A stretch of DNA of 64,000 nucleotides from Scenedesmus sp. PABB004 (GCA_014905635.1 CM026548.1:62001-126000); one strand, 5' to 3'; shown: positions 990 through 58,503, numbered from the stretch's first letter. A program made the numbers and translations. The notes: generated by a model from the letters alone, not told the origin.

Positions 990-3900
990 ATGGCGTCGAC
1001 GGCAAACGGCAACGGGTGCGCGCGCTGTGCGCGCTGCGGCGGTTGCCGCCAACCGCCCCGCCGCGGGGCCGCCGCCGTTTGCTTGCGCGCGCGCGGGCGC
1101 CGCGCCAGCCCGCCGCCTCACACACCCGCCGCCGCCCGTCGCACGCCCCGCCGCCCGCGCAGGCTTGCGCAGCCGCCCGGCGCGGACGTGGAGCGGCGCG
1201 TCGCCGCCGCCGCGCGCGACCAGGCGGCCGGCGGCGAGCCGCCGGGCTTTGCCGATGCGCGCCCCAGCGCGCCGCCGGCCGACCAGGGCGCCAAGCTGCT
1301 GCCGGGCCAGGCGCCGCCGGGGTTTGCGCCGCTGGCACGAGGCTTCTACGCGGCGCCCCACGGCGGCGCGCCCGGCTACCCCACCGCCGCGGCGGACGAC
1401 TCCCACGCGGCGGCGCTGGCGCAGGCGTTGCCTGCGTTTGGCCCGGCGCGGCGGCGCCGCGTACCCGCCGCTCGGCCACGCGCCGCCGCCCGAACTACTG
1501 GCGGCGCAGCAGCACCAGCACCACCAGGCGCTCCAGGCGCAGCACCAGGCGCACCAGCAGGGCCTCGCGGCCTCGGCAGGCGCCGGCGCGGGGCCCGGCC
1601 CCGGCGGCCCGGTGCCGGCCCCGGCGGCGGCCCTGGCGGCGTCGGCGGCGGCGGCGCGCAGCGCGCGCTGCCCGAGGACGCGCCCGCGCCCAAGACCGAC
1701 CCGCTGGAGCTCAGCCTGCTGGCGAGCTACCTGGAGGTGGTGCGCCAGACGCAGGGCGAGGCCGCGGCCGCGGAGGCCAGCGCCGCGTCGGGCCTGCCCG
1801 CCGGCGGCGGCGGCGCGCCGGCCGGCCCGCACGCCGCCTTCCTGGCGGGCGCCGAGGGCGCGCTCGTGGCGCGCAGCCGCGCGGGCAGCCAGGACGGCGG
1901 CGGCGGCGCGCCGGCGGGCAGCGAGGCGCTGGGCGTGTCTGGGCTGCTGGGGTTCATCAAGGCCCGCAAGCTCGCCGGCCTCACCGCGAGCGCACTCGGG
2001 CCGGGCGCGGGCATCGTGCGGCGCGGCAGCAGCAGCAGCGTCGGCTCCGCCTCCTCCGCCGGCGGCCTCGGCCTGCCGCCCGCGGGCGGCGGCGGCGGCG
2101 GCGGCGGCGGCGGGGGCGGCGGCGGCTCGCGCAAGTACTGGGTGCAGCCGAGCGGTGCGCGCGCCGCCGCGCAGCCCCGTCCTGCAGGCTCGCGCGCCGC
2201 GCCGCGCCGCGCCTCACGCCCGCCGCCGCGCGCCGGGCGCCGCCAGGCCCGCGGCGCCCCGGCGAGGGCGTCGAGAACGAGGAGCAGGGCATCCTCAGCG
2301 CGGAGGAGGTGGCCGCCACGGGGTGCGGCGCACTCGCGGCGCGCCCGCTCGCACGTGTGCCCTCGCCGCGCTGTTCCGCCAGCGCCCGCCACTCACCCCG
2401 CCCCCCCCCCCCCCGCCGCTTGCACCTCGCCGCGTGCCCCTGTGTGCCGCAGGGAGGTGATGATGCGCATCACGCTGCTCGCGGCGGGCTTTGTCATCGG
2501 TGCGGCGGCGCGGCGCCGCGGCGCCGCGGCAGGCGGGGCACGCAGGGGCGGCGCGCGGGGGGCTGAGGGAGGCGGCCGCGCGCTCACGCACTGCGCCACG
2601 CGACGCGCCGCGCGCCGCGCGCCCGCCAGGGCCGAGCGGGTCGAGCGTGCGCGAGATCGTGCGCCTGAGCGGCGCGGACGTCAACTCGTGGACCGAGGCG
2701 GGCGGCAGCCACCGCGGGCGCCGCCCCGCGCGCATCTTCGTCATCAAGGCGCGCCGCAGCGCACAGCACGCGCAGCACAGCGCGCGCAGCACGCGGCGCG
2801 CCTCGGCGCACGCGCGCGGCGCGCGCCCGCGGGCCGCGCCGCCGCCGCGCGCAAAGCGCCGCCCGCCGCCCGCGCCGCCCTGCGGCGGCCGCGACCCCGC
2901 AGGGCGAGGCGCGGTGCGTGGCGCAGGCGGTGTACATCATCACCTCCGCGGTCGACCGCTACAAGGAGCTCTGCGAGGGACGCTACACCGGTGCGCGACG
3001 CCCCGCCTGCCCGCCGCGCTCAGCCCGCGCTGCCGCGCTCAGCCCGCGCTGCCGCGCTCTGCCGCCGAGCCGCGCCCCCGTGCCCGCCGCCGCCGCGCCG
3101 CGCGCAGGCCAGAGCGTGCCGCGGGCGCAGAACGTGCTGGGCGTGACGTTCTCGTACCAGCCGCCGCCCAAGTCCATCGTGCCCTGCGCCGCCAGCCTCA
3201 AGGAGATCTACCCGCCACACAAGTGAGCCCCCCCCCCCCCCCCGCGCACACACACACCGCCCAGCCCAGCCCATGGCTGGCCAGCCGCGCACGCGCGCGC
3301 GTGGCGCTGCAGGACTCGCGGCCGCGCGCGGCCGCGCGCGCCGCGCGTGCGTCGCCGCGCTCACTCGCGCGCCCCCGCCGCGCCCCCGCCGCGGCCGCAC
3401 GCGCACCCGCAGCGCGAGCAAGCTGGGCGGCTACGGCTCGCCGCAGGGCGGCCTCTACCGCAGCCGCGGCGGCGCGCGCGGCGGCGGCGGCCGCGCGCTG
3501 GACCCGTACGCCGACCCCGGGGCGTGGGCGGCCATGATGGCCGCGGCGACGCAGATGGGGCTCAGCCACCTCACCGCGCTCAGCGCCGTGGGCGGGTCGC
3601 CCGGCGGCCCCTACGGCGGCGCCTACGGCGCCCTGCCCGGCTACGCCTTCCCCGCGCCGCTGGGGCCGCCGCCGCACGGCGCGAGCTACGGCGGCCTCGG
3701 CGCGCCGCCGCCCGGCGCGTTTGGCAGCCTCGTCGGCGGCGTGGGCGGGCTCGATCCGCTCGGCGGCCTGGGGCCGTTTGGCATGCCCGGCCTCGGCGGC
3801 GCGGGCCTCGTGGGCGGACCGGAGGCCTTTGGCCCCGGCGCGCCCGGCCTCTTTGGCGCGCCCGGCAGCGCGCCGCCGGGCGGCCTGCCCGGCCTCGGCG

Positions 3901-56476: not shown

Positions 56477-58503
56477 ATGGGCGCCACGCGGCGCGCCATC
56501 AGCAGCCGCCGCTGCCCGCCCGCGCGAGCGCTGCTGTGGGTCGTCGCCTGCGCGCTCGCGTGTGGGCCGGCGGCTGGCCAGGGGAGCAACCCCAACGGGG
56601 GCACCACGCCGCCGTCCGACAGCTGCTATAGCGGTGCGCCGCCGCCGTCGCGCGCCGCCGGCGTCGCGCCGCTGCCGCCGCGTCACCGGCCCCCCCGCCG
56701 GTGACCGCGGCGCCGCCACGAGCGCCGCCGCCGCCGCCGCGTGCGCGCCCGCAGGCATCGCGCGGCTGCGCCGGCGGCCCGGCCCCAACGAGTGCCAGCT
56801 GCGCTCGTCGCGCACACGGCCGCTGACCGCGCCGATGGACTTTGGCACCGACTGGCCGTGGGACTGCCTGGATGAGATGATCGTGTCGGTCGAGGGCTGC
56901 AAGATCAGCATGTTCAGCACCAAGAACAGCAGCGACGTGCTGCCCGACTTCTCCTGCAACTGGCTCGAGTACCAGGGATACATCAAGTCGGGTGCGCGCG
57001 TGCGGCGCGGCGGCGACGCCGCGCCCACGCCGCGCGGCGCGCGGGAGGGCGGCAGGGGCGCCGCGCGGGCGCGGGGGCCGCCGCCGCCGCCGCCGTGGCC
57101 AACGGCGCCGCCGCCGCCGCCGCCGCCAACGGCGCCGACGCGTCCGCGCCCGCGCCCGCGCGCGCGCGCCCGCAGCGCACGAGGCGCACCTGTCGGTGTG
57201 GCTGCGGCCCATCACGGTCGGCAAGTGGGTGCTCTACCACACCAACCTCACGAGCTGGCGGGCGCAGGGCGTGGCGACGGTCACGCTCGCCGACCTCACC
57301 GCGGCAATCACCCAGGTCTCTCGACGCGACCCGGAGCTGCCCGTGAGCCAGCTGCTGCGCCAGCCGGAGCTCGCGCCGCTGCTCAAGGACAGCACCGACT
57401 TTGCGCAGCAGGCCGCCGCCAGCGCGGGCGGGGGCGATGGCGGCGCCGCCGCCGGGCGCCGGCTGCTGCGCGTGCTGCAGCAGGCAGCCGCGGCCGGCGG
57501 CGCCGCGCCCGCCGCCGCGGCGGCGCAGCAGTGGCCCGTGCCAAAGCCGCCGCTGCCGGCGGGCGTGGAGGCGACCGTGGGCAACGGCCTGGTGTCGCGG
57601 CCCGTCGCCTGGTGCGCTGGCGCGCGCGCGAGGCCCCCGCGCCCCCTGCGCGCCCGGGCGCCCGCGCCGCTGAGCGCCGCGCCGCGCCGCGCCGCGCCGC
57701 GCCGCGCGTCGTTACGCGCGCGCGCCCGCAGGCAGGGCATGCTGGCCGACCTGTACGTGAGCAACGGCAGCCCCGTGTACGGCTTCCCCGCCAACGGCAC
57801 CGTGCAGCTGTTCAACAACCAGCGCTGCAACATGAGCTTCGAGGCGCGCGCGCGACCGCGACCGCCGCGCGGCCCCGCGCCCGCTGCGCCCCAGCCCCAG
57901 CGCCCCCCCCCCCACACACACACGCGCACACGCATCCGCGCCCGCCCGCCCGCGCCCCGCGCGCCCGCGCGCCGCCGCCGCCGCCGCCGCCGCCGCCGCC
58001 GCCGCCGCCGCCGCCGCCGCCGCCGCCGCCGCCGCCGCGGCGCGCAGGTGCTCGAGGGCGGCTTCCTCGGCGTCGGCGACGTCGACCCCGGCAGCGCGGG
58101 CGCGTTTGCAATGCCCTCCATCGAGCCCTACGACACGCCCTACGTCTTCTCGTACAGCCGCGACGCGCTCGCGAGCGTCGCGGGCTGCAGCAGCGCAGGC
58201 GCCGGCGGCGGCGGCGGCGGCGGCCCGGGCTGGGGCCGCGGCGGCGGCGCCGCGAGCGTCGCGGCAATCGTCATCCTCTCGGTCCTCGGCGCCGCCCTGC
58301 TCGGCAGCGTGGTGTACCTCGGGGTGCGGCTCTGCCGCGCGGGCAAGGCCCGCGGCGCGGCGCCGGCCGCGCCGTTTGAGGACGGCGCCGGCCGCGCGGG
58401 CAGCCCGCGCGGCGGCGGCGGCGCGCCCGGCGGCGGCGGCGCGATCGCGATGAGCCCGCTCGAGGACGCGGCGCGGCGCCACGGGCCCGGCGGCGGCATC
58501 TGA
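56477..58503 (+). CDS. Hypothetical type I membrane protein (signal peptide, Cys-containing ectodomain, C-terminal TM helix)
   Basis: ALLWVVACALACGPAAG signal; exons DWPWDCLDEMIVSVEGCKISMFS..FSCNW; TM SVAAIVILSVLGAALLGSVVYLGV followed by RLCR; stop 58501-58503. Confidence 0.7.
57971..58038. repeat. (CCG)n microsatellite, about 22 units, in an intron
   Basis: Uninterrupted gccgccgcc run before the acceptor at 58047. Confidence 0.85.

Follow-up and report, generated by a model that had tools for sequence, protein, structure and literature searches.

Frequent GC-AG introns in a 64-kb window of the GC-rich genome of Scenedesmus sp. PABB004

About 1% of plant and animal introns are U2-type introns with GC-AG ends (Pucker & Brockington 2018, PMC6310983; Frey & Pucker 2020, PMC7072748), and GC-AG and GT-AG ends interchange at homologous positions (PMC7072748). 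For algae with GC-rich genomes shares of 8–60% rather than about 1% are given, an excess that the studies concerned explain by genomic G+C. In the data of Iwata & Gotoh (2011; PMC3033335), which include Micromonas pusilla CCMP1545, GC-AG introns amount to 39.6% in Aureococcus anophagefferens, 22.2% in M. pusilla and 7.7% in Chlorella sp., and these shares are tied to genomic G+C. For Emiliania huxleyi, Feldmesser et al. (2014; PMC4028052) report GC-AG at 56% of 241 curated junctions, nine GC junctions having been verified by RT-PCR, and for pelagophytes a share of 14–17% has been given (bioRxiv 10.1101/2024.10.30.620910). Our literature search found no report of a GC-AG excess for the Scenedesmus/Tetradesmus group.

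We analysed a 64-kb stretch of Scenedesmus sp. PABB004 (the window), in which an original prediction had noted 22 GC-AG introns. The window has in common with the GC-rich algae, as those sources describe them, a high-G+C nuclear genome and the canonical AG acceptor; unlike them it is chlorophycean, of the Scenedesmus/Tetradesmus group, and its G+C is higher (80%). Its G+C (79.9%) lies above the approximately 64% taken here as the lower bound for such algae, and its GC-AG share, counted in this one 64-kb window, is several-fold above 1–2% (17.2%). A high GC-AG share in GC-rich algae is thus already known and the window adds another lineage; compared with the precedents as presented in those sources, what is added here is a dependence on matching flanks and switches between GT and GC at orthologous positions. 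Like the GC-AG introns of plants and animals, those of the window combine a GC donor with an AG acceptor and a better-than-average consensus elsewhere in the donor, but they are about 15 times more frequent (17% against about 1.2% in plants), and the compensating consensus at +3 to +6 is the alga's own GCGC instead of AAGT. The introns are the following (a slash marks the exon–intron boundary):

2749..2902, plus strand, KH-domain gene, 154 nt, phase 0, aag/GCGCGC
6989..7105, minus strand, ferritin, 117 nt, phase 0, cag/GCGCGA
7386..7526, minus strand, ferritin, 141 nt, phase 0, cag/GCGCGC
9472..9560, minus strand, BUD23-like methyltransferase, 89 nt, phase 0, cag/GCGCGG
11523..11713, minus strand, starch synthase III (SS3), 191 nt, phase 0, cag/GCGCGC
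12791..12983, minus strand, SS3, 193 nt, phase 0, gag/GCGCGG
14114..14330, minus strand, SS3, 217 nt, phase 0, aag/GCGCGC
14469..14741, minus strand, SS3, 273 nt, phase 0, cag/GCGCGC
15723..15997, minus strand, SS3, 275 nt, phase 2 (AG/G = Arg), cag/GCGCGC
22191..22294, minus strand, metallophosphoesterase gene, 104 nt, phase 0, cag/GCGCGC
24223..24358, minus strand, D-cysteine desulfhydrase, 136 nt, phase 0, ctg/GCGCGC
24682..24776, minus strand, D-cysteine desulfhydrase, 95 nt, phase 0, aag/GCGCGG
25670..25766, minus strand, MSI4/RBBP4-like WD40 gene, 97 nt, phase 0, cag/GCGCGC
28221..28327, minus strand, MSI4/RBBP4-like gene, 107 nt, phase 0, cag/GCGCGC
31518..31686, plus strand, ULP1/SENP-type protease gene, 169 nt, phase 0, aag/GCGCGC
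39378..39568, plus strand, hydroxypyruvate-reductase-like (HPR) 2-hydroxyacid dehydrogenase, 191 nt, phase 0, gag/GCGCGC
43201..43320, minus strand, EH-domain/coiled-coil gene, 120 nt, phase 0, cag/GCGCGC
50829..50988, plus strand, PI4-kinase beta (PI4K), 160 nt, phase 0, cag/GCGCGC
51103..51248, plus strand, PI4K, 146 nt, phase 0, gag/GCACGC
51339..51509, plus strand, PI4K, 171 nt, phase 0, aag/GCGCGG
52768..52880, minus strand, WDR54-like WD40 gene, 113 nt, phase 0, cag/GCGCGT
57844..58047, plus strand, membrane-protein gene, 204 nt, phase 0, gag/GCGCGC

On the strand given, all 22 intervals have GC at the 5' end and AG at the 3' end, and in 16 of them the length is not a multiple of three, so that these cannot be read through. 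We wrote a gene finder for the window (3-periodic Markov models and splice-site PWMs, with EM on the GC-donor share). The flanks and interiors of the 22 introns served as seed for its initial coding and non-coding models, which were then retrained on the whole window. All 22 introns were returned exactly by this ab initio parse, also from a starting GC-donor prior of 1%; because of the seeding the parse is not fully independent. When GC donors were barred within 150 nt, the local parse score fell at every one of the 22 introns, by 6.3–27.8 nats.

Homologous proteins or solved structures gave gapless junctions at 14 of the 22 introns (five in SS3, three in PI4K, two each in the desulfhydrase and MSI4, one each in ferritin and BUD23). 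Frame-keeping boundary pairs of any dinucleotide, about 1,240 per junction, were scored against homologs. The five SS3 junctions ranked 1/1237 (11523..11713, against 10 homologs), 3/1227 (12791..12983), 4/1241 (14114..14330), 4/1239 (14469..14741) and 3/1237 (15723..15997); at the second, fourth and fifth the best other GT-AG pair lay 29, 34 and 19 points lower, and at the first and third a GT-AG alternative was absent. It was likewise absent at both desulfhydrase junctions, which ranked 1/1241 (24223..24358, gapless against 11 homologs) and 3/1238 (24682..24776, where LSGNK/VRKLEF is gapless in 11 of 11) and are identical in the public protein model P0119.

The same model has the identical junction at MSI4 25670..25766, where GGGTLQ/LWR aligns without a gap to P0121 and to the transcript-derived ORF P0120. 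At 28221..28327 YISEQ/TNP is gapless against P0121, and no GT-AG pair within 66 nt offers an alternative; here P0119 leaves out the upstream exon. In PI4K, the exon before 50829..50988 reaches position 145 of the Pfam PI3_PI4_kinase profile, and position 147 is matched by residue 2 of the exon that follows; the junction ranked 1/1223 and was gapless against P0116–P0118. The junction at 51339..51509 ranked 2/1225, was gapless and had no GT-AG alternative, and the public model P0115 agrees at both. At 51103..51248, VTFE/AAPMKL is gapless against P0116 and P0117 and P0115 uses the GC donor. A GT donor 12 nt upstream had a slightly higher local score (236.0 against 233.3 for GC), but with it the conserved FE would be lost. 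The read-through translation of ferritin 7386..7526 formed two blocks on the solved ferritins 3vnx_A and 7xz4_A that became contiguous after removal of exactly the 47 intron-coded residues, and barring GC cost 10.5 nats. The exons flanking BUD23-like 9472..9560 fell on contiguous residues (172 and 173 of 6g4w_q, 167 and 168 of 4qtt_B), the exon-2 matches being weak (E 0.03–0.3); here the loss was 25.7 nats.

Together, the two public models that mapped to the window (P0115 and P0119) use GC-AG at six of the eight listed introns that they cover. They differ at 28221..28327, where the homolog supports the listed intron, and at 22191..22294, a candidate intron that P0119 reads through in favour of a GT donor at 22166. 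ORFs derived from transcripts of a relative (P0008, P0120) run continuously across the junctions. Judging from the proteins and the sequence statistics, RNA is probably spliced at these donors.

Eight introns lie outside the homolog-confirmed set: those of the KH, phosphoesterase, ULP1, HPR, EH, WDR54-like and membrane-protein genes and ferritin 6989..7105. The exons around ULP1 31518..31686 match the Peptidase_C48 profile up to 141 and from 150 and are contiguous to about one residue, PDB alignments being only rough because the junction falls within a variable loop; barring GC cost 17.6 nats. For the other seven the ends were confirmed and the introns were present in the parse, with losses of 15.4 nats (KH, where the parse falls back on a poor GTCATC donor 9 nt upstream), 16.7 (ferritin, with exons too short for a comparison with PDB structures), 27.8 (phosphoesterase), 14.1 (HPR), 17.4 (membrane protein), 9.9 (EH) and 7.7 (WDR54-like, alternative GT donor 18 nt upstream). 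The EH intron is the weakest case, since its length is a multiple of three and its flanks are unconserved; the alternative is an in-frame read-through.

A first parse pass with a GC-donor prior of 1% gave 31 GC donors in 149 introns. Beyond the listed 22, the parse called 19 further GC donors; all six that were inspected failed (three in MSI4, HPR 40636–40732 and two at the PI4K 3' end), and the remaining 13 putative calls have no AG/ flank. Counting 106 GT-AG introns and the 22 listed ones, the GC-AG share is 22/128 or 17.2% (95% CI 11–25%), a value for one 64-kb window and not for the genome; against a rate of 1.2% the binomial p is 5e-19. The original prediction of frequent GC-AG introns, far above the usual level of about 1%, is thus confirmed in the window by the parse, the cost of barring GC donors, the homologs and the reading frame, and its estimates of about 135 introns and of one in six agree with this count.

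The GC donors carry A at −2 and G at +3 in 21 of 22 cases and G at −1, C at +4 and G at +5 in all 22, so that the predicted consensus (A)G/GCGCG is real. The GT donors of the window have the consensus AG/GTGCGC, with G 97%, C 69% and G 92% at +3 to +5. The GC donors repeat this GT consensus of the alga except for C at +2, with flanks that hardly vary, and the GCGC at +3 to +6, which had been regarded as special to GC introns, is shared by the GT class. Similar donors, GTGCG at +1 to +5, are found in Ostreococcus lucimarinus (consensus GTGCGTG; Irimia & Roy 2008, PMC2483917), which unlike the window has GT donors in an intron-poor genome, no GC-AG excess being described in that account. A U12-type donor is absent: positions +1 to +5 read GCGCG in 21 introns and GCACG in one, and the U12-type sequence ATCC, which also appears in PMC3033335, stands at +3 to +6 in 0 of 22.

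An AG/ flank was found at 21/22 GC donors and 38/106 GT donors (p=1.2e-7), which gives statistical backing to the earlier proposal of a reliance on the exonic AG; the sole listed GC donor without A at −2 is 24223..24358. C at +4 was present in 22/22 GC and 73/106 GT donors (p=0.001). Sorted by the number of matches to A−2, G−1, G+3, C+4 and G+5, GC donors accounted for 0/32 donors with three or fewer matches, 2/55 with four and 20/41 with five, the perfect-flank donors being split into 21 GT and 20 GC. The remaining positions of GC donors are therefore nearer the consensus than those of GT donors, as compensation would have it, although an ascertainment bias is possible in this comparison; the flank dependence may be inflated, as both the original prediction and the PWM-based parse favour perfect-flank GC donors. 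Coding sequence showed no depletion of the heptamer AGGCGCG (21 copies, against an expectation of 17.3 under synonymous shuffling). Fifteen copies serve as donors, and 18 copies in sense exons and 10 in sense introns do not, so the donor motif alone is unable to specify these sites.

The near-total phase 0 was also borne out (21/22), and the phase distribution differs from that of GT introns (p=2e-4). When only GT donors with AG/ were compared, 30/38 were in phase 0 (p=0.135), so that the flank accounts for the excess. Third codon positions in the window are 94.8% G+C and 2.4% A; an exonic A at −2 therefore rarely fits there and is mostly the middle base of an NAG codon.

We also looked at orthologous SS3 introns in independent assemblies of relatives. 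At the positions of 12791..12983 and 14469..14741 L003 has a GT donor and L037 and L038 have a GC donor, and at that of 14114..14330 L001 has GT. At SS3 position 793, L003 (53% GC) has cag/GTACTC and L037 and L038 (70% GC) have cag/GCGC; at position 1018 these are gag/GTGCGC and gag/GCGCGC, respectively. At position 1127 a GT donor is found in L001, L003, L040 and the window, and cag/GCGCGC in L037 and L038. At common positions, relatives with about 50% GC thus carried GT and those with about 70% carried GC. The share shows no steady increase with G+C: 5 of 22 SS3 donors were GC in the window (80% G+C), and L037, at 70%, has at least 6 of about 12.

It seems very likely that the introns belong to the ordinary U2 type, handled by the major spliceosome, and that their GC-AG ends have become common owing to the extreme G+C richness of the genome. 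Strong T-to-C pressure, through mutation bias or GC-biased gene conversion, would keep turning T at donor +2 into C, and the C would be tolerated only where the rest matches the species consensus A−2 G−1 / G Y G+3 C+4 G+5. The exonic AG and the contacts at +3 and +5 would then offset the lost +2 pair with U1 snRNA, and at poorer-flank donors a C at +2 would be purged by selection. Such a mutation–selection balance would leave about half of the perfect-flank donors as GC and the poorer ones almost never. The phase-0 excess is a by-product of the A at −2. We infer the direction of the T/C change and the logic of the U1 pairing. Against this account, canonical pairing with the U1 5' end does not predict an invariant C at +4.

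An improbable alternative is that spliceosome components of this lineage are altered (for instance the U1 5' end, U6 or U1C) and read G-Y-G-C-G directly, with T and C nearly equivalent at +2; GC-AG use would then come from altered recognition rather than from tolerance under mutation pressure. The even split of the perfect-flank donors would fit such a change, as would the departure of the whole donor consensus, GTGCGC, from GTAAGT, and C at +4 in all GC donors but only 69% of GT donors suggests that this base is positively read. However, the lack of GC among poorer-flank donors (0/32 with three or fewer matches) is what tolerance with compensation predicts, and a neutral +2 should be mostly C rather than half, given that T makes up about 6–8% and C 45–50% of intron bases. 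For Aureococcus and Micromonas pusilla, U1 was judged unlikely to explain the differing GC-AG shares in the treatment given in PMC3033335. An Rfam search of the 64-kb window found no RNA family and hence no snRNA gene.

Far less likely still, and largely refuted, is that the GC donors are artefacts of T-to-C base-call errors at +2 or of misplaced boundaries. GC makes up 21.4% of dinucleotide positions in the window and GT 3.5%, a six-fold difference, so GC at an intron boundary is weak evidence in itself; with equal priors the parser over-called GC donors (121–159), the extra calls that were inspected were wrong, and the assembly seems to contain errors, with G runs in conserved exons that have probably lost 1 nt. 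These suspected errors are indels and not substitutions, however, and at the high-ranking SS3 and desulfhydrase junctions no comparable GT-AG pair exists. Mis-sequenced GT donors would share the flank and phase distributions of the GT class, from which the GC donors differ strongly, and the independent assemblies L037 and L038 carry AG/GCGCGC at identical intron positions.

Similar lengths and a stereotyped GCGCGC start might suggest that the GC-AG introns arose by copying within a spreading introner-like family with a GC donor. Within the 64-kb window this reading is refuted, since an all-against-all blastn of the 128 introns, a check for the introner-like clustering raised earlier, gave seven weak matches (28–54 nt, 76–88% identity), none with a GC-AG intron, and several intron positions are common to distant relatives, so these introns are old.

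The two donor classes did not differ significantly in median length (GC-AG 150 nt, GT-AG 127.5 nt, p=0.2), and intron G+C was 0.857 in both, and the C-rich 3' region and the GCAG/G acceptor were common to both. The affinity to Selenastraceae that had been supposed was not upheld: the exons of the window are 98–100% identical to the P0115 and P0119 proteins, named by their source as from a Scenedesmus strain, the next named match is from Tetradesmus (87%), and Monoraphidium comes no closer than 72%.

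Each of the 22 intervals proposed as GC-AG introns in the window starts with GC on the proposed strand and has AG at its other end. Because GC accounts for 21.4% of the dinucleotides in the window and GT for only 3.5%, such ends alone are little proof. We analysed the window with a purpose-written gene finder built on a 3-periodic Markov model of coding sequence and on weight matrices for donors and acceptors, with background-corrected GT/GC priors and re-estimation of the GC-donor share. A parser with equal GT and GC priors called 121–159 GC donors, which was over-calling, and it was discarded in favour of background-corrected priors combined with PWMs and EM. 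Whether started at a GC share of 1% or 50%, the parse settled on 147 introns with 41–43 GC donors; with the 1% prior, its first pass already contained 31 among 149. The 22 introns were all recovered base for base; this is supportive and not independent evidence, since the initial models were seeded from these introns and their flanks and were retrained on the whole window only later. When GC donors were barred within 150 nt, the local parse score fell by 6.3–27.8 nats for each of the 22 donors. In addition, the length of 16 of the 22 introns was not a multiple of three.

The parse also called 19 further GC donors, and all six that we examined were wrong:

Additional GC-AG calls of the parse that were rejected
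27213–27318: better fitted by a GT donor 3 nt upstream
40636–40732: GTGAGC donor 36 nt upstream
51847–52250 and 52252–52893: gene-end artefacts
28391–28496, minus strand: MSI4 intron 1, where the homolog is fitted by a GT donor 8 nt downstream if the assembly lost one G
25884–26070: GTGAGC donor after a missed part of the exon

The remaining 13 calls were without AG before the donor, were located chiefly near gene boundaries or in low-complexity sequence, and were left out of the count.

To examine the junctions by homology, all frame-keeping boundary pairs within at least 30 nt of the model were considered, whatever their dinucleotides, and the junction peptides were scored against homologous proteins. 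Gapless or contiguous junctions were obtained for 14 of the 22 introns. The five junctions of starch synthase III (SS3) ranked 1–4 of about 1,240 pairs against 10 homologs, including the transcript-derived ORF P0008, and the best other GT-AG pair was 19–34 points lower or absent. Both D-cysteine desulfhydrase junctions (LSGNK/VRKLEF and IHL/VTKEEY, the slash marking the junction here and below) were gapless against 11 homologs and ranked 3/1238 and 1/1241, with no GT-AG alternative. The three PI4-kinase junctions showed no gaps against the homologs P0116–P0118, and adjacent exons abutted on the Pfam profile, one ending at position 145 and the next having its residue 2 at 147. At 51103–51248 the local score of a GT donor 12 nt upstream was marginally higher (236.0 versus 233.3), but this alternative loses four residues including the conserved FE and is disfavoured by the multiple alignment. 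Both MSI4 junctions were gapless. The read-through of ferritin intron 7386–7526 matched solved ferritins in two blocks that became contiguous after removal of exactly 47 intron-coded residues, and in two solved homologs the residues matched by the two BUD23-like exons were contiguous, with weak matches in the second exon.

Outside these 14 were the ULP1, ferritin 6989–7105, hydroxypyruvate-reductase-like, KH, phosphoesterase, EH, WDR54-like and membrane-protein introns. The ULP1 junction was contiguous to within one or a few residues, and its PDB alignments were rough. For the KH, phosphoesterase, EH, WDR54-like and membrane-protein introns the evidence is the parse, and among them the EH intron has the weakest case, as its length is a multiple of three and its flanks are not conserved. 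A Pfam scan of single exons was informative solely for PI4-kinase and ULP1, most exons being too short to score. Ranking by local alignment is unreliable at poorly conserved junctions, because removal of non-conserved residues lifts the score; in the N-terminal half of SS3 and parts of MSI4 multiple alignments were therefore used instead.

Two public protein models, assigned by their source to a Scenedesmus strain, cover parts of the window. P0115 maps onto it with 11 introns, eight GT-AG and three of the 22 GC-AG, and leaves two GT-AG introns within its coding sequence (47180–47344 and 50320–50445, both multiples of three). P0119 (1483 aa; 20832–28604, minus strand) is a fusion of MSI4/RBBP4-like, D-cysteine desulfhydrase and metallophosphoesterase genes. 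It agrees on GC-AG introns 25670–25766, 24682–24776 and 24223–24358 and misses 28221–28327 and 22191–22294, where its structure is different; at 28221–28327 a homolog backs the originally predicted intron.

We also noticed two probable single-G deletions and a further frame change. A seven-residue stretch, ITxGGxQ, was present in 11 of 11 D-cysteine desulfhydrase homologs and missing from both our model and the public protein. The last 20 nt (24512–24531) of the modelled GT-AG intron 24512–24624 (minus strand), with one G added to the run at about 24519–24522, would encode the conserved motif VTIGGVQ before SNH; a single-base assembly deletion is likely here, or else a real frameshift. At MSI4 intron 1, where the homolog reads WPSQ-ACRW-GPRLE, a GT donor at 28488 and one more G in the exon start GTGGGCC (28382–28390 and 28489–28496, minus strand) give exactly ACRWGPQ. 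This is probably a second single-G deletion, and it seems to have misled our parse as well as the public model. The MSI4 exon at about 26070–26133 (minus strand) changes frame within a GCG-rich low-complexity stretch. The conserved VLFKHVGHRAG, absent from P0119 and with a GTGAGC donor after it, is read in a different frame; a very short intron would account for this, as would an indel.

The window contained 106 GT-AG and 22 GC-AG introns, so that the GC-AG share was 17.2% (95% CI 11–25%), in agreement with the predicted one in six; in SS3 alone it was 5/22. Compared with the 1.2% given for plants (PMC6310983), the binomial p for 22/128 was 5e-19. The donor consensus was A43 G84 / G T G97 C69 G92 C51 for GT introns and A95 G100 / G C G95 C100 G100 C73 for GC introns. 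Apart from C at +2 and flanks that hardly vary, the GC donor is the normal one of this alga. The idea that GCGC at +3 to +6 is special to GC introns was not borne out, since GT donors are alike there (G97 C69 G92), and they resemble the GTGCGTG consensus published for Ostreococcus (PMC2483917).

Donor flanks of GC and GT introns; flank matches are to A-2, G-1, G+3, C+4 and G+5
AG before the donor: GC 21/22, GT 38/106, p=1.2e-7
C at +4: GC 22/22, GT 73/106, p=0.001
Three or fewer flank matches: GC share 0/32
Four flank matches: GC share 2/55
Five flank matches: GC share 20/41

The dependence on flanks in these figures may be overstated, because the eye and the matrices alike pick up GC donors most readily where the flanks are perfect; the dinucleotide-blind homology test gave no poor-flank GC donor at the conserved SS3 junctions. 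Phase 0 was found in 21/22 GC introns versus 57/106 GT introns (p=2e-4), whereas against GT donors with the AG flank (30/38) the difference was not significant (p=0.135). The bias arises because A is needed at -2 and third codon positions hardly ever have it (94.8% G+C, A just 2.4%). The two kinds of intron (22 versus 106) did not differ in length, G+C content, C-rich 3' region or acceptor.

To compare relatives, we scanned metagenome contigs with an SS3 exon; this gave algal loci carrying an SS3 ortholog, whose intron boundaries were refined against the window protein.

Donors at shared SS3 intron positions in relatives' loci (G+C in brackets) and the window
Position 793: L003 (53%) cag/GTACTC; L037 and L038 (70%) cag/GCGC; window GC
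Position 1018: L003 gag/GTGCGC; L037 and L038 gag/GCGCGC; window GC
Position 1127: L001, L003 and L040 GT; L037 and L038 cag/GCGCGC; window GT
Position 839: L001 (49%) GT; no entry for L037 or L038; window GC

In L037, GC-AG with the AG flank was top-scoring at six of about 12 resolved junctions; in loci of 50–60% G+C, GC calls were never top-scoring and were discounted. These loci show that GT and GC take turns at old intron positions common to the relatives, and that the GC state accompanies high G+C. In L037 and L038 (about 70% G+C), at least half of the SS3 introns that could be resolved appear to be of the GC-AG kind and to have AG/GCGCGC donors, a higher share than in SS3 of the window despite their lower G+C.

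The GC-AG observation is confirmed and, on the DNA and protein evidence used throughout, its main interpretation appears to hold. The restriction of GC to otherwise optimal donors (0/32, 2/55 and 20/41) and the GT/GC alternation among relatives of differing G+C suggest that the window offers a clean small-scale view of a splice signal held in mutation-selection balance.

It is rather improbable, in our judgement, that 5' splice-site recognition in this chlorophycean lineage has itself shifted to A G / G Y G C G, with T and C nearly interchangeable at +2 of perfect-flank donors and C at +4 positively recognised. C at +4 is not expected from canonical pairing with the 5' end of U1, and donors with perfect flanks comprised 21 GT versus 20 GC. 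Within genes, sense-strand AGGCGCG was used as a donor 15 times and left unused at 18 exonic and 10 intronic places, so the donor motif alone cannot define the sites. The unused copies, together with the invariant C at +4, keep changed recognition alive at low probability. Exons carry AGGCGCG as often as real donors do, so under such recognition the choice of site would depend on other cues, for example an intron body rich in poly-C and CACAC. The trait might then be lineage-wide and fast-evolving, as at least half of the donors in L037 and L038 may be GC.

Sense-strand C made up 45–50% of intron sequence overall and 55–57% of the last 50 nt, so that the pyrimidine tract is in effect a poly-C tract. 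Relative to exons, CCCCC was enriched 23-fold and CACAC/ACACA 16–20-fold, and a (CA)3+ tract occurred in 20/128 introns versus four in 34 kb of exons. The missing site information may come from such features.

Systematic T-to-C errors in the assembly are an unlikely source of the GC donors. Their flank and phase signatures are unlike those of GT donors, AG/GCGCGC donors also occur in independent assemblies, and the assembly errors that we saw look like single-G deletions, not substitutions. An introner-like origin, for which clustering of the introns had been proposed as a check, is excluded within the window, where 128 introns gave seven weak matches and none with a GC-AG intron; selection against cryptic donors was rejected, as AGGCGCG is not depleted in coding sequence (21 observed versus 17.3 expected from synonymous-codon shuffles).

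The phenomenon itself is not new, as GC-rich algae with abundant GC-AG introns have been described in print. Iwata and Gotoh (PMC3033335) give GC-AG shares of 39.6% for Aureococcus, 22.2% for Micromonas pusilla and 7.7% for a Chlorella, link the excess to genomic G+C, describe its origin as an enigma and consider U1 sequences an unlikely explanation. In Emiliania huxleyi, 56% of 241 curated junctions were GC-AG, and nine GC junctions were verified by RT-PCR (Feldmesser et al., PMC4028052), and a preprint gives 14–17% for pelagophytes (bioRxiv 10.1101/2024.10.30.620910). In the literature searched we found no GC-AG report for Scenedesmaceae or other Sphaeropleales (Scenedesmus, Raphidocelis, Monoraphidium, Selenastraceae); the supplementary tables of PMC6310983 and PMC3033335 may cover related algae. 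With this window, the published puzzle becomes testable in another green-algal group. The practical weight lies in annotation of such GC-rich genomes: gene finders that assume GT donors would mis-build about one intron in six here, and this, with the faulty P0115 and P0119 models, argues that very GC-rich algae need flank-aware pipelines that allow GC donors.

The window has a G+C content of 79.9% and comes from the nuclear DNA of a chlorophycean green alga, with genes that are tightly packed and rich in introns and with strong 3-base periodicity in the exons; no Rfam family matched at gathering thresholds. P0115 was 100% identical to one PI4-kinase exon and P0119 98% identical to one MSI4 exon. 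The top named relative for a starch-synthase exon was Tetradesmus obliquus (87%), with Monoraphidium minutum at 72%, so that the original placement near Selenastraceae was right as to order and probably wrong as to family. Gene boundaries were hard to call because stops are rare and intergenic spacers short. Our parse merged the following same-strand neighbours:

6747–10088, minus strand: BUD23-like and ferritin genes
28977–33692, plus strand: ULP1 and TPR-protein genes
52087–55858, minus strand: WDR54-like and PC-esterase-like genes
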